Source: Escherichia phage 04922B
Reading direction: 5' to 3' (one strand)
Length of the DNA: 39,427 bases
Sequence record: OP331230.1
In this document: positions 7,623 to 26,333 of the stretch, one piece after another
Layout of the letters: the number at the start of each line of letters is the position of its first letter
Numbering within the stretch: the first letter of the stretch is position 1
The notes under the pieces: generated by a model
What the model was told of the DNA's origin: nothing
What the model saw: only the letters and a program-made list of their open reading frames with translations
Database searches by the model: none
Program-made: the position numbers and the translations under genes

Positions 7623-10600
7623 ATGGATAAGTACGATAAGAACGTACCAAGTGATTATGATGGTCTGTTCCAAAAGGCGGCTGATGCCAACGGGGTCTCT
7701 TATGACCTTTTACGTAAAGTCGCTTGGACGGAATCACGATTTGTACCTACAGCAAAGTCTAAGACTGGACCATTAGGTATGATGCAATTTACCAAGGCAA
7801 CCGCTAAGGCCCTTGGTCTGCGAGTTACCGATGGTCCAGATGACGACCGACTGAACCCTGAGTTAGCTATCAACGCTGCTGCTAAGCACCTTGCGGGTCT
7901 GGTTGGTAAATTCGATGGTGATGAACTCAAAGCTGCCCTTGCGTATAACCAAGGCGAGGGACGCTTGGGTAATCCACAACTTGAGGCGTACTCTAAGGGA
8001 GACTTCGCGTCCATCTCTGAGGAGGGGCGTAATTACATGCGTAGCCTTCTGGATGTTGCTAAGTCACCTATGGCTGGACAGTTGGAAACTTTTGGAGGCA
8101 TCACCCCAAAGGGTAAAGGAATTCCGGCTGAGGTAGGATTGGCTGGAATTGGTCATAAGCAGAAGGTGACACAGGAACTACCTGAGTCCACAAGTTTTGA
8201 CGTTAAGGGTATCGAACAGGAGGCTCCGGCGAAACCATTCGCCAAGGACTTTTGGGAGACCCACGGAGAAACGCTTGACGAATACAACAGTCGTTCAACC
8301 TTCTTCGGATTCAAAAATGCTGCCGAAGCTGAACTCTCCAACTCAGTCGCTGGGATGGCTTTCCGTGCTGGTCGTCTCGATAATGGTTTTGACGTGTTTA
8401 AAGACACCATTACGCCGACTCGCTGGAACTCTCACATCTGGACTCCAGAAGAGTTAGAGAAGATTAGAACAGAGGTTAAGAACCCTGCGTACATCAACGT
8501 GGTAACTGGTGGTTCCCCTGAGAATCTTGACGACCTCATTAAGCTGGCTAACGAGAACTTTGAGAATGACTCACTAGCTGCCGAAGCTGGTCTAGGTGCA
8601 AAACTGAGTGCTGGTATTATTGGCGCTGGCGTGGACCCTCTTAGCTATGTCCCTATGGTCGGTGTCACTGGTAAGGGCTTTAAGTTAATCAATAAGGCTC
8701 TTGTAGTTGGTGCAGAAAGTGCTGCTCTGAACGTTGCATCCGAAGGTCTCCGTACCTCCGTAGCTGGCGGTGACGCAGACTACGCTGGTGCGGCCTTAGG
8801 TGGCTTTGTGTTTGGCGCTGGTATGTCTGCAATCAGTGACGCTATAGCTGCTGGACTTAAACGTAGTAAACCAGAAGCTGAGTTCGATAATGAGTTCATC
8901 GGCCCTATGATGCGGATGGAAGCCCGTGAGACAGCACGCAACGCCAACTCTGCTGACCTCTCTCGGATGAACACTGAGAACATGAAGTTTGAAGGTGAAC
9001 ATAATGGTGTCCCTTATGAGGACTTATCAACCGAGAAAGGTGCCGTGGTGTTACAGGATGGCTCCGTTCTAAGTGCAAGCAACCCAATCAACCCTAAGAC
9101 CCTCAAAGAGTTCTCCGAGGTTGACCCTGAGAAGGCTGCGAGAGGAATCAAACTTGCTGGATTCACCGAGATAGGCTTGAAGACCTTGGGGTCTGACGAT
9201 GCTGACATCCGTAGAGTGGCTATCGACCTCGTTCGCTCTCCTACTGGTATGCAGTCTGGTGCCTCCGGTAAGTTCGGTGCAACAGCTTCTGACATCCATG
9301 AGAGACTTCATGGTACTGACCAGCGTACTTATAATGACTTGTACAAAGCAATGTCTGACGCTATGAAAGACCCTGAGTTCTCTACTGGCGGCGCTAAGAT
9401 GTCCCGTGAAGAAGCTCGATACACTATCTACCGTAGAGCGGCACTAGCTATTGAGCGTCCAGAGTTGCAGAAGGCACTAACCCCGTCTGAGAGAATCGTT
9501 ATGGACATTATTAAGCGCCACTTTGACACCAAGCGTGAACTTATGGAGAATCCTGCAATCTTCGGTAATACGAAGGCTGTGAGTATTTTCCCTGAGAGTC
9601 GCCACAAAGGGACTTACGTTCCTCACGTTTACGACCGTCATGCTAAAGCACTGATGATTCAACGCTACGGTGCCGAAGGTTTACAGGAAGGTATTGCTCG
9701 TTCGTGGATGAACAGCTACGTCTCCAGACCTGAGGTCAAGGCCAGAGTCGATGAGATGCTTAAGGAATTACACGGGGTGAAGGAAGTAACGCCAGAGATG
9801 GTAGAGAAGTACGCTATGGATAAGGCTTATGGTATCTCCCATTCAGACCAGTTCACCAACAGTTCCATCATTGAAGAGAACATTGAGGGCTTAGTAGGTA
9901 TAGAGAACAACTCATTCCTTGAGGCACGTAACTTGTTTGATTCGGACCTATCCATCACTATGCCAGACGGACAGCAATTCTCGGTGAACGACCTAAGGGA
10001 CTTCGATATGTTCCGCATCATGCCAGCGTATGACCGCCGTATTAATGGTGACATCGCCATCATGGGGTCTACTGGTAAAACCACTAAGGAACTTAAGGAT
10101 GAGATTTTGGCTCTCAAGGCGAAAGCTGAGGGTGACGGTAAGAAGACTGGCGAGGTTCATGCTCTAATGGATACCGTTAAGATTCTTACTGGTCGTGCTC
10201 GACGCAATCAGGACACTGTGTGGGAAACCTCACTGCGTTCCATCAATGACCTAGGGTTCTTCGCTAAGAACGCCTACATGGGTGCTCAGAACCTTACGGA
10301 GATTGCTGGTATGATTGCCACGGGCAACGTTCGTGCTCTAGGCCACGGTATCCCAATTCTGCGTGATACACTCTACAAGTCTAAACCAGTTTCCGCTAAG
10401 GAACTCAAGGAACTCCATGCGTCTCTGTTCGGGAAGGAGGTGGACCAGTTGATTCGCCCTAAACGTGCTGACATTGTGCAGCGCCTAAGGGAAGCAACTG
10501 ATACTGGCCCTGCTGTGGCGAACATCGTAGGGACCTTGAAGTATTCCACACAGGAACTGGCTGCTCGCTCTCCATGGACTAAGATGCTGAACGGGACCAC

Positions 10601-16922: not shown

Positions 16923-17161
16923 GGTCTTCCTGACAGACTGATGGCTCACCGAGGGATTCAGCGGTATGATTGCATCACACCACTTCATCCCTATAGAGTC
17001 AAGTCCTAAGGTATACCCATAAAGAGCCTCTAATGGTCTATCCTAAGGTCTATACCTAAAGATAGACCATCCTATCAGTGCCACCTAAAGAGGGTCTCAG
17101 AGAGGGCCTAAGGAGTCCCTAGAGGGTCCTTTAAAATATACCATAAAAATCTGAGTGACTA

Positions 17162-17309
17162 TCTCACAGTGTACGGACCTAAAGTTCCCCCCATAGGGGT
17201 ACCTAAAGCCCAGCCAATCACCTAAAGTCAACCTTCGGTTGACCTTGAGGGTTCCCTAGGGTTGGGGTTGGGTCATTGGGTTTACCTTTGAGTGTCTCTC
17301 TGTGTCCCT
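17162..17309. repeat. Terminal repeat of the mature linear genome, single copy (concatemer-junction form)
   Basis: tctcacagtgtacggacctaaag...gagtgtctctctgtgtccct matches the T7 terminal-repeat start and end; exact boundaries are approximate. Confidence 0.75.
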
Positions 17310-17460
17310 ATCTGTTACAGCCTCCTAAAGTCACCTCCTAAAGTCATTCCTACCGTCTACAACCTAAAGACTACACTTAAAGACCCATTCAGTCAATCCC
17401 TATCTTAAAGATAATCCTAAAGACCATACCTAAAGACCATACCTAAAGATGCCTTGTTGT
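17310..17460. repeat. Left-end array of short cctaaag-type direct repeats
   Basis: Repeated cctaaag, cttaaag and acctaaagaccat units visible by eye, as at the T7 left end. Confidence 0.7.
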
Positions 17461-17494
17461 TACCTATAAAGAGATTATCTTTAATCATTGTCTT

Positions 17495-17517
17495 TAATAC
17501 AACTCACTATAAGGAGA
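17495..17517 (+). promoter_or_regulatory. T7-RNAP promoter phiOL (left-end variant)
   Basis: taatacaactcactataaggaga, the phiOL-type variant of the consensus. Confidence 0.85.
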
Positions 17518-17566
17518 CTACTTAAAGGCCTTAAAGAGATTAATCAAAATAATTTAAAAAAGAGTA

Positions 17567-17595
17567 TTGACTTAAAGAGTCCTACAGATTATTAT
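17567..17595 (+). promoter_or_regulatory. Host sigma70 early promoter A1
   Basis: -35 TTGACT, 17-bp spacer, -10 TATTAT. Confidence 0.8.
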
Positions 17596-17693
17596 TCATC
17601 TCGTCAACGGGACAACGGCCTAAAGCCACTCCCTGAGATACCGGGGTCAACCGGATAAGTAGACAGCCTGATAAGTCATATGAAAAACAGGCA

Positions 17694-17723
17694 TTGACAA
17701 CACGCAGTAACATGCAGTAAGAT
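17694..17723 (+). promoter_or_regulatory. Host sigma70 early promoter A2
   Basis: -35 TTGACA, 18-bp spacer, -10 TAAGAT. Confidence 0.8.
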
Positions 17724-17798
17724 GCACAGCGTCAACCGGACGAACGGTGTCTTCTAGGTGACTTAAGCGCACCACGGCACACAAGGTGAAACAAACGG

Positions 17799-17827
17799 TT
17801 GACAACATGCAGTAAACACGGTACGAT
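17799..17827 (+). promoter_or_regulatory. Host sigma70 early promoter A3
   Basis: -35 TTGACA, 17-bp spacer, -10 TACGAT. Confidence 0.8.
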
Positions 17828-17945
17828 GTACCACAAGCATTAAGGGTGTAGGGATAGGAACCGAGAAACCTGCCCGTGACCCGCCAAGGATAAGGCACTA
17901 GCCATGAGTCGAATTCGGTCACTCATCGCATAAAAGAATAACAGG

Positions 17946-17974
17946 TTGACAGCCTCCTTTAAAAGCTGTAAGAT
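17946..17974 (+). promoter_or_regulatory. Additional sigma70 promoter-like element (fourth A-type promoter)
   Basis: -35 TTGACA, 17-bp spacer, -10 TAAGAT, inside a segment I do not recall in T7 between A3 and gene 0.3. Confidence 0.6.
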
Positions 17975-18176
17975 GTACCACAGAAAGACACCGAGTGTCG
18001 TAGGTGTAAAAACGCGACATAGTGGATAGATGCCGAAAGCACAAGCGACCACGATAATAAAGAGCTTGTCGGATATATAACGCAAGTGACGGCTAACACT
18101 GAAACAGCCTCGGCTCGATGAAACTGTAGCTTAAAGTTCTTTAACAATCTGGTAAACGGCTCTTGAGTGTACACAC

Positions 18177-18228
18177 GTAGCGGATAACTCAAGGGTATCG
18201 CAAGGTGCCCTTTATGATATTCACTACT
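18177..18228 (+). promoter_or_regulatory. RNase III processing site R0.3
   Basis: agcggataactcaagggtatcgcaaggtgccctttatgatattcac, the conserved hairpin upstream of gene 0.3. Confidence 0.8.
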
Positions 18229-18253
18229 AACCACACACATGAGGTAACACAAG

Positions 18254-18601
18254 ATGGCTATGTCTAACATGACTTATAACAACGTTTTCGACCACGCTTA
18301 CGAAATGCTGAAAGAAAACATCCGTTATGATGACATCCGTGACACTGATGACCTGCACGATGCAGTACACATGGCAGCCGATAGCGCCGTTCCGCACTAT
18401 TACAGCGACATTTTCAGCGTAATGGCAAGCGAGGGCATTGACCTTGAGTTCGAAGACTCTGGCCTGATGCCGGACACCAAGGACGTAATCCGTATCCTGC
18501 AAGCGCGTATCTATGAGCAACTCACGATTGACCTCTGGGAAGACGCTGAGGACTTGCTGAACGAGTACCTTGAGGAAGTCGAAGAAGAGGATGAAGAGTA
18601 A
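18254..18601 (+). CDS. 0.3: Ocr, DNA-mimic inhibitor of type I restriction-modification (gp0.3)
   Basis: 115-aa acidic protein [36 protein letters not shown]...EEVEEEDEE, recognised as T7 Ocr. Confidence 0.95.
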
Positions 18602-25791: not shown

Positions 25792-26333
25792 TGTCTGGTT
25801 GCATAGCTTGCTTAGAGAAAGACGACCGTTATCCACACACCTGTAATAAAGGAGCTAACAACATGACTGAACGTGAACAAGAAATGATCATGAAGCTGGT
25901 AGACAACAACGAAGGTCGCCCAGATGATTTGACTGGCTGCGCGGTTCTCTGCTCTAATGTTCCCTACCACCTCTGCCCAGCAAATAATGATCAGAAGATA
26001 ACCTTAGGTGAAATACGAGCGATGGACCCACGTAAGTCTAAGTCGGATAAACCAGAGGTAACTCCGACAGATGACCAGTCTTCCGCTGAGTCAATCGAAG
26101 GTATCACTAAGCCATCCCATTACATGCTGTTCGACGACATTGAGGCTATCGAAGTGATTGCCCGTTCGATGACCCGTGAGCAGTTCAAGGGGTACTGCTT
26201 AGGGAACATCCTTAAGTATCGCCTACGTGCTGGTAAGAAATCCGAACTGGCTTACTTAGAGAAGGACATGGCGAAAGCTGGGTTCTATGGTGAACTGTAC
26301 GAGAAACATAAGGATAAGTGCTATGACGCTTAA
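25791..26333 (+). CDS. 1.7: Nucleoside monophosphate kinase (gp1.7), N-terminally shortened relative to T7
   Basis: 180-aa [35 protein letters not shown]...; matches T7 gp1.7 but lacks about 16 N-terminal residues. Confidence 0.92.
   Translation: MSGCIACLEKDDRYPHTCNKGANNMTEREQEMIMKLVDNNEGRPDDLTGCAVLCSNVPYHLCPANNDQKITLGEIRAMDPRKSKSDKPEVTPTDDQSSAESIEGITKPSHYMLFDDIEAIEVIARSMTREQFKGYCLGNILKYRLRAGKKSELAYLEKDMAKAGFYGELYEKHKDKCYDA

Follow-up and report, generated by a model that had tools for sequence, protein, structure and literature searches.

The early control region of Escherichia phage 04922B (OP331230.1), analysed here within a window that comprises the whole stretch of 39,427 nucleotides, is probably best described as a lengthened version of the T7 arrangement, in which a short non-coding cassette, hereafter cassette X, would provide both a fourth sigma70 promoter (A4) and, upstream of it, a structured RNA. 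As judged by comparison with related phages, A4 is likely a promoter in use, and a conserved structured leader RNA, whose function as RNA we infer, appears to be the likeliest reading of the approximately 105 nt that precede it. In itself, A4 is of minor importance, and the conserved sequence that precedes it in X could prove the more important of the two.

Genome context and promoters

Because gene 0.3 encodes Ocr and nucleotides 1-750 of T7 align to positions 17162-17835, the window is a circularly permuted T7-like genome, with its physical left end at 17162, and its closest relatives assign the phage to Teseptimavirus. By its sequence, the segment under study belongs to the early, host-transcribed control region (Table 1). 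Around the left end, the window carries arrays of short CCTAAAG-type repeats (17000-17460), typical of T7-group genome ends, and the terminal repeat is present as a single copy in the permuted assembly.

Table 1. Features of the left end and early control region, in window positions
Feature	Position	Strand	Basis or remark
Segment matching T7 up to the A3 start	17162-17835		T7 alignment
phiOL-type phage-RNAP promoter TAATACAACTCACTATAAGGAGA, landmark	17495..17517	+	Read from sequence; positional homolog of phiOL annotated in T7, T3 and BA14
A1-type sigma70 promoter, TTGACT-17-TATTAT	17567..17595	+	Aligns to T7 A1
A2-type sigma70 promoter, TTGACA-18-TAAGAT	17694..17723	+	Aligns to T7 A2
A3-type sigma70 promoter, TTGACA-17-TACGAT, predicted start 17835	17799..17827	+	17835 is the T7 A3 start (750) by alignment
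Cassette X, 147-bp non-coding insertion relative to T7	17836..17982	+	Contains palindrome and A4; absent from T7, T3 and phiYe-F10
Conserved, apparently structured part of X	17844..17929	+	Minimum-energy fold and RNAalifold
Helix P1	17844-17847/17879-17882
Helix P2	17851-17858/17869-17875
Helix P3	17883-17885/17894-17896
Helix P4	17901-17912/17919-17929		17 bp upstream of the A4 -35 hexamer
Imperfect palindrome with EcoRI site (17911-17916), core of helix P4	17904..17926	+	Outer pair varies: A-U, G.U, G-C
Predicted fourth sigma70 promoter (A4), TTGACA-17-TAAGAT, predicted start 17982	17946..17974	+	Homolog of BA14 host RNAP promoter 834-870
Helix P5, 5-bp inverted repeat in the A4 spacer	17949-17953/17965-17969		Loop CCUCCUUUAAAA
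Y-insert, 89-nt leader segment	17983..18071	+	Absent from T7, T3 and CICC 80001
Leader hairpin with invariant loop AACACUGAAAC (boxB-like)	18091..18109	+	In all relatives examined
Second leader hairpin	18112-18131
boxA-like sequence GTTCTTTAACAATCTGG	18136..18152	+	CTTTAACAAT invariant in 24/24 distinct leaders
R0.3 RNase III site	about 18177..18227	+	Homology to stem_loop annotated R0.3 in T3 (822-875) and phiYeO3-12
Gene 0.3 (Ocr DNA mimic), first gene served by the promoters	18254..18601	+	Pfam PF08684, E = 5e-63

The three A1/A2/A3-like promoters described in the initial annotation are present at 17567, 17694 and 17799, and the further TTGACA-17-TAAGAT element is found at 17946-17974, where it had been placed. 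Each of the four sites matches 10 of the 12 consensus positions. At 10/12 or better, six sites occur on both strands of the whole 39.4-kb window against 4.9 expected from shuffled sequences, and four of the six lie on the + strand within 410 bp, immediately upstream of the first gene, a clustering whose chance we put, as a rough estimate computed from the site counts, at ~1e-8; a looser threshold applied to a 3-kb scan was uninformative (five sites, 4.8 expected). In published T7-like Yersinia phages, three to six host promoters are predicted per genome (PMC5923468). Counted from the A3 start, the ATG of gene 0.3 is 175 bp away in T7 (750 to 925) and 419 bp away in the window (17835 to 18254), so that the extra length between A3 and R0.3 claimed earlier is real, but amounts to 244 bp and not to ~260 bp.

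A4 has the hexamers of A2 with better spacing, and its -35 hexamer, on the + strand, is separated by 785 bp from the left end and by 308 bp from the Ocr ATG further downstream. It shares with A1-A3, the class I promoters of T7 and T3, the near-consensus hexamers, the 17-18 bp spacing, the strand and the place upstream of gene 0.3; its -10/start region is the same GATGTACCACA as that of A3 and is followed by the same downstream leader. The window differs from T7 and T3 in having this fourth copy, 147 bp downstream of A3, and A4 differs from A1-A3 in its unique spacer, AGCCTCCTTTAAAAGCTG, which holds a covarying inverted repeat, and in the roughly 105 nt upstream of it, a nearly invariant sequence with no counterpart before A1-A3. 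In the window, A4 matches its paralog A3 at 33 of 43 positions, among them those of the -35 hexamer and the start region (z = 7.6 relative to shuffled sequences), and A4 and A2 are also paralogs (z = 3.3). Both relationships are confined to the promoter part, the upstream ~105 nt of X having no paralog (z about 0). The possibility that X arose by tandem duplication of the interval A1-A2 or A2-A3 was rejected, given that only the promoter part is paralogous.

The proposal of an additional strong early promoter thus gains comparative support from the paralogy with A3, from the 44 phage records that carry X, and from two genomes in particular, but the promoter is not novel. The carefully annotated record of phage BA14 (EU734171) lists four 'host RNAP promoter' features, the fourth of which (834-870) is the homolog of A4, and window positions 17798-17979 align to BA14 684-867 with 90% identity and the same order of elements. 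BA14 differs in its -10 hexamer (TAAGCT), in a T-A for C-G change in the spacer repeat, in its SAMase-type gene 0.3 and in lacking the Y-insert; its record annotates the promoter only and not the conserved element upstream. The alignment with T7-group left ends therefore makes the segment a standard feature of the lineage rather than a new one and, being annotated in BA14 and widespread, the fourth promoter is, as far as homology can tell, not new. A search of the literature library returned nothing specific on a fourth A-type promoter, on early initiation from it by the E. coli holoenzyme, on the promoters of BA14 or on a T7 boxA. The second genome is that of the Teseptimavirus PDP351P2 (OZ035763), in which positions 488-650 hold only two sigma70 consensus promoters before gene 0.3, namely A1 and an A4 core, TTGACAGCCTCCTTTAAAAGCTGTAAGAT, fused directly to A2-type upstream sequence and lacking the upstream part of X. 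Because PDP351P2 has the A4 core as one of its two host-type promoters, this core is separable and presumably works as a promoter.

It could be argued that the TTGACA-17-TAAGAT element is not used as a promoter at all, and that it is conserved as part of the P5 structure or as a DNA site, with gene 0.3 transcribed from A1-A3 only. This would account for the covarying inverted repeat in the A4 spacer, which a promoter does not need, and for the weaker TAAGCT found as the -10 hexamer in many copies (those of Berlinvirus and most of those of Kayfunavirus). However, the -35 hexamer is a perfect TTGACA in 21/21 distinct X sequences, the spacer measures 17 bp in 20/21 and the A2 and T6 positions of the -10 hexamer are kept; moreover, the start region GTACCAC is that of A3, the leader downstream is shared with T7 and T3, where it comes after the last A promoter, PDP351P2 relies on the A4 core and the BA14 annotation is that of a host promoter. 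We consider a non-promoter role very unlikely, and a start at about 17982 by the E. coli sigma70 RNA polymerase is what homology with T7 A3 would predict.

Two independent cassettes

A pairwise mosaic map of the window against T7, T3, phiYe-F10, phiYeO3-12, CICC 80001, pO111, CQ615, BA14, 285P and SH3 does not bear out the view of a single expanded region, which is instead made up of two independent, laterally shared non-coding cassettes, X and the Y-insert. X is flanked by an 11-bp direct repeat, and ends with the same GATGTACCACA as A3. phiYe-F10 has the Y-insert after A3 and lacks X, in CICC 80001 and its kin a T7-type leader comes directly after X, and the two cassettes occur together only in pO111 and CQ615, as they do in the window. 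The Y-insert occurs in 38 phage records, each with an identity of 96.6% or more, and the others lack it, an all-or-none distribution of the same pattern as that of X. Its carriers are mostly T3-group phages, with hosts in ten genera, and it would represent a second, independent leader cassette borrowed from that group. Over its first 15 nt it is similar to the beginning of the standard leader, and it holds small hairpins (GACACCGAGUGUC; ACAAGC...GCUUGU). A 16-codon ORF in the Y-insert (ATGCCGAAAGCA...TAA) was set aside as doubtful, since its differences from phiYe-F10 are all non-synonymous and its Shine-Dalgarno sequence is weak.

The early control region would owe its extra length to two short non-coding cassettes, transferred between phages through recombination where promoter and start-site sequences are conserved. 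X would have been gained between the A3 start site and the standard leader and would be gained or lost as a unit through the repeated promoter/start-site cores, recombination being the presumed mechanism of the gain. Across the genomes compared, the number of promoter cassettes varies from two to four, by what their sequences indicate to be exchange at the conserved AACAGG-TTGACA and GATGTACCAC motifs, and PDP351P2 shows that promoter cassettes are lost and recombined at conserved cores.

Conservation and spread of cassette X

Cassette X was found by blastn in 44 GenBank phage records, with 92.7-100% identity, and homologs between about 65% and 92% identity were absent, down to the sensitivity of blastn. 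The carriers belong to Teseptimavirus, Berlinvirus, Kayfunavirus and, in one case, Przondovirus, in addition to several metagenomic contigs. A metagenome scan with a 21-mer yielded five contigs with X, all near-identical, and a scan of viral contigs yielded 13, mostly the same GenBank phages. No match to X was obtained by blastn at E up to 1 among 5,426 complete E. coli genomes, and an origin in the host was rejected on this basis. With a covariance model, the window, BA14 and SH3 each yielded a single copy; diverged copies were found neither elsewhere in the window nor in T7, T3, phiYe-F10 or phiYeO3-12, where the best E value, 0.42, came from the promoter part only.

When the genome is compared with BA14 (Berlinvirus) and with SH3 (Kayfunavirus), the best-conserved 120 bp of its entire length are those of X (117/120 in each case), against a background that averages about 70% identity for alignable sequence, and both flanks of X diverge beyond alignment. 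It is nearly invariant over about 125 bp, a promoter requiring about 40-60 bp. The gene that follows varies, being Ocr in the window, a SAMase-type 0.3 in BA14, 285P and Klebsiella phage K35PH164C3, and neither of these in several of the Kayfunavirus carriers; at its other end, X begins 5-15 nt after the start site of the upstream sigma70 promoter in 24/24 distinct copies examined.

Near-identity across genera could partly reflect recent lateral transfer and not constraint. In its full form, this explanation holds that X is a promoter cassette recently spread between co-infecting T7-like phages by recombination at promoter cores, and that its upstream 105 nt have no function. It is consistent with the all-or-none occurrence of X and the gap in identity among its homologs, with its patchy presence within each genus, its sharp boundaries at promoter/start-site motifs and the varying number of cassettes, and with the same all-or-none pattern in the Y-insert; a second segment of ~92% identity to BA14 (26117-26325) would also indicate that local lateral exchange happens. 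Nevertheless, the variants of X group according to genus and carry fixed differences, compensation accompanies most of the changes at paired positions, and in none of the four named genera that carry X was flanking sequence co-transferred. The EcoRI palindrome adds to these objections, as it has been kept only within X in two genomes otherwise devoid of EcoRI sites: the GAATTC of P4 is the only one in BA14 (position 799) and in SH3 (position 688), where about 10 would be expected, which argues that the sequence of X is held by selection. Taken together, we regard recent spread of a functionless upstream segment as rather unlikely, and continue to favor a conserved structured leader.

The window itself has five EcoRI sites; of the other 6-bp palindromic sites checked, most are missing, or nearly so, from BA14 and SH3. 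The segment at 26117-26325, 91.9% identical to BA14 8579-8787 (best window 115/120, background about 70%), is the only other outlier in the comparison with that phage, and may represent local lateral exchange or a second strongly constrained element.

A possible structured element upstream of A4

The imperfect palindrome at the EcoRI site, atgagtcgaattcggtcactcat, is real, but is situated at 17904-17926, one base to the right of the position first given to it. It forms one helix of a larger conserved and apparently structured element, so that the earlier suggestion of a small-RNA locus is partly supported. The structure initially came from the sequence of the window alone, as the minimum-energy fold of the + strand RNA, which gave helices P1-P4, and RNAalifold on 21 distinct sequences recovered the same four helices independently and added the P5 hairpin. 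In these 21 sequences, 98% of 608 cells are standard pairs and 4 of the 29 pairs are compensatory, which amounts to few independent events, whereas the slid controls, with partners moved by one to three columns, gave no compensatory pairs. Two of the four lie in P1 (17844:17882, G-C to U-A, and 17847:17879, U-A to C-G), one in P4 (17904:17926, A-U, G.U and G-C) and one in P5 (17953:17965, C-G to U-A, in Berlinvirus). By a tally of the alignment, X has about 23 variable columns, about 14 of them unpaired, and eight of the nine at paired positions fall in compensatory pairs; the compensatory changes correspond to about 4-6 independent events among closely related sequences. On the other side, the P1 pair 13:45 is unpaired in 11 of the 21 sequences, and X, when folded as a single sequence, shows no significant excess of stability over shuffled ones (z = -1.7). 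We place selection on the upstream element as a structured RNA at close to an even chance.

No match was found in Rfam 15 within 17828-18260, even at E up to 10, and ARAGORN found no tRNA or tmRNA. The + strand of X has no intrinsic terminator, P4 being followed by CGCAUAAAAGAAU without a U-tract.

Covarying inverted repeats fit recognition at the level of DNA as well as that of RNA, and the palindrome could accordingly be a DNA operator through which a host or phage regulator acts on A4. It lies upstream of the promoter, with its centre about 67 bp from the predicted start, a distance typical for activators that contact RNA polymerase; it is invariant in 20/21 sequences, six of which show a symmetrical change in the outer pair (A..T to G..C). 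However, the arms are offset by a 3-nt asymmetry that is unusual for a dimer-binding site, the G.T intermediate is common (6/21) and fits RNA better, and the conservation runs 60 nt further upstream into P1-P3, which an operator does not explain. By eye, there is also no good fit to the consensuses of CRP, Fis, LexA, ArgR, TrpR or the LacI family. An operator thus seems improbable.

Even less credible is the possibility that X encodes a small protein, either from a 9-codon ORF in the palindrome or from minus-strand ORFs annotated in some records. The former reads ATG/GTG AGT CGA ATT CGG TCA CTC ATC GCA TAA after TAAGG, and its first codon is always ATG or GTG, with the Shine-Dalgarno-like TAAGG 8 nt upstream; hypothetical proteins have been auto-annotated here in ESh1, ESh6 and Baskent. 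Against this, EG1 lacks the stop codon of the mini-ORF, the minus-strand frames are disrupted by a 1-nt insertion in BA14 and P483, stop codons interrupt all frames on the + strand of X, and the genes of T7-group phages are all on one strand in the annotated records. The minus-strand ORFs at 17840-18085, 17647-17922 and 17959-18270 and a 27-aa ORF on the + strand, tried as coding candidates, were discarded, having no Pfam or PHROG match.

Among the readings of the upstream part of X, we retain that of a structured RNA. The 5' two-thirds of X (about 17844-17930) would be transcribed from A1-A3, and the resulting RNA would fold into four helices, with a fifth in the A4 spacer, and expose sequence-specific loops that include AAGGAUAAGG and, in P5, CCUCCUUUAAAA. 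A fuller proposal, which we put forward tentatively and consider somewhat doubtful as a whole, is that the ~105 nt upstream of A4 (17844-17930, together with the A4-spacer hairpin) are an undescribed structured early-leader RNA on a laterally mobile promoter cassette; contacts of its loops with a specific partner, from the host or the phage, would then account for its near-invariance across no fewer than four named genera. RNA polymerase or elongation factors, the ribosome (via the AAGGAUAAGG and CCUCCUU motifs) or a defence system would be candidates for that partner. With regard to these motifs, the loop of the A4 spacer (17949-17969, + strand) resembles the 3' end of 16S rRNA and, because it reads CCUCCUUUAAAA on the + strand, the minus strand reads AAGGAGG there; AAGGAUAAGG is found in the P3 loop, 60 nt upstream of the A4 spacer repeat.

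The closest parallel to X that we are aware of is offered by the PeSL cassettes (promoter-early stem-loops) of T4-like phages, which are small and non-coding and combine a strong sigma70-type early promoter with a stem-loop, are conserved between phages, lie at recombination joints where genomes differ and mediate shuffling (PMC2839356, PMC4122927). X likewise joins a strong sigma70-like promoter to a stem-loop (P4). However, the stem-loops of PeSLs are effective terminators, and PeSLs are present in many copies flanking variable ORFs (PMC2839356, PMC4122927), whereas X is single-copy, lacks a U-tract terminator and does not flank a gene. The missing terminator and the single copy place X outside the PeSL definition, and the parallel is best taken as one of analogy, not of membership.

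The common leader

From about 18072, the window enters a leader common to every relative, which consists of a hairpin, a second hairpin, the boxA-like sequence, R0.3 and gene 0.3. In 16 sequences, all four pairs of the first hairpin are compensatory, none is broken and at least seven different stems occur, and all T7-group leaders examined have the hairpin loop (A)ACACUGAAA. About 27 nt downstream of this hairpin lies GYUCUUUAACAAUYUGG, in which the boxA-like core reads GUUCUUUAACAA in the window and GCUCUUUAACAA in T7; the T7 version, GCUCUUUAACAAU, we take to be the rrn boxA core (consensus GCUCUUUAACAA). A freely covarying hairpin with an invariant loop, followed ~27 nt later by GYUCUUUAACAAU, recalls the rrn leader and the lambda nut site, and the two elements look like a boxB-boxA site of the rrn/nut type ahead of R0.3. 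The putative nut-like site lies outside X and is common to T7 and T3.

Implications for early infection

The 3' third of X would be A4, a class-I promoter at which the host RNA polymerase may start at about 17982, giving a transcript that passes through the leader hairpin, the boxA-like sequence and R0.3 and then gene 0.3. A4 would be one more entry point for the polymerase, about 785-820 bp from the genome end, so that the early genes and transcription-driven genome entry would be served by four tandem promoters instead of three. In T7, as work from the Molineux laboratory is reported to have established, roughly the first 850 bp enter the cell without transcription, after which the early region is drawn in by the host polymerase; A4 would fall within this initial ~850 bp. 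X would be located in the DNA that enters first and in the earliest RNA transcribed, and it is non-coding. If its upstream part is a functional RNA or a binding platform, it would represent an unrecognised element of early infection in one of the best-studied groups of phages.

The genome of phiYeO3-12 (NC_001271) contains a TTGACA-17-TAAGAT element at 816-844, directly upstream of the standard leader and unannotated in the record. Because of this site, which comes in addition to the annotated promoters up to A3 (628-656), phiYeO3-12 also has four promoter-like sites. The 160-bp segment between its annotated A3 and the unannotated site is unrelated to X in the covariance-model search, and has the motif AAGGCACTA(C)AGCC in common with it.
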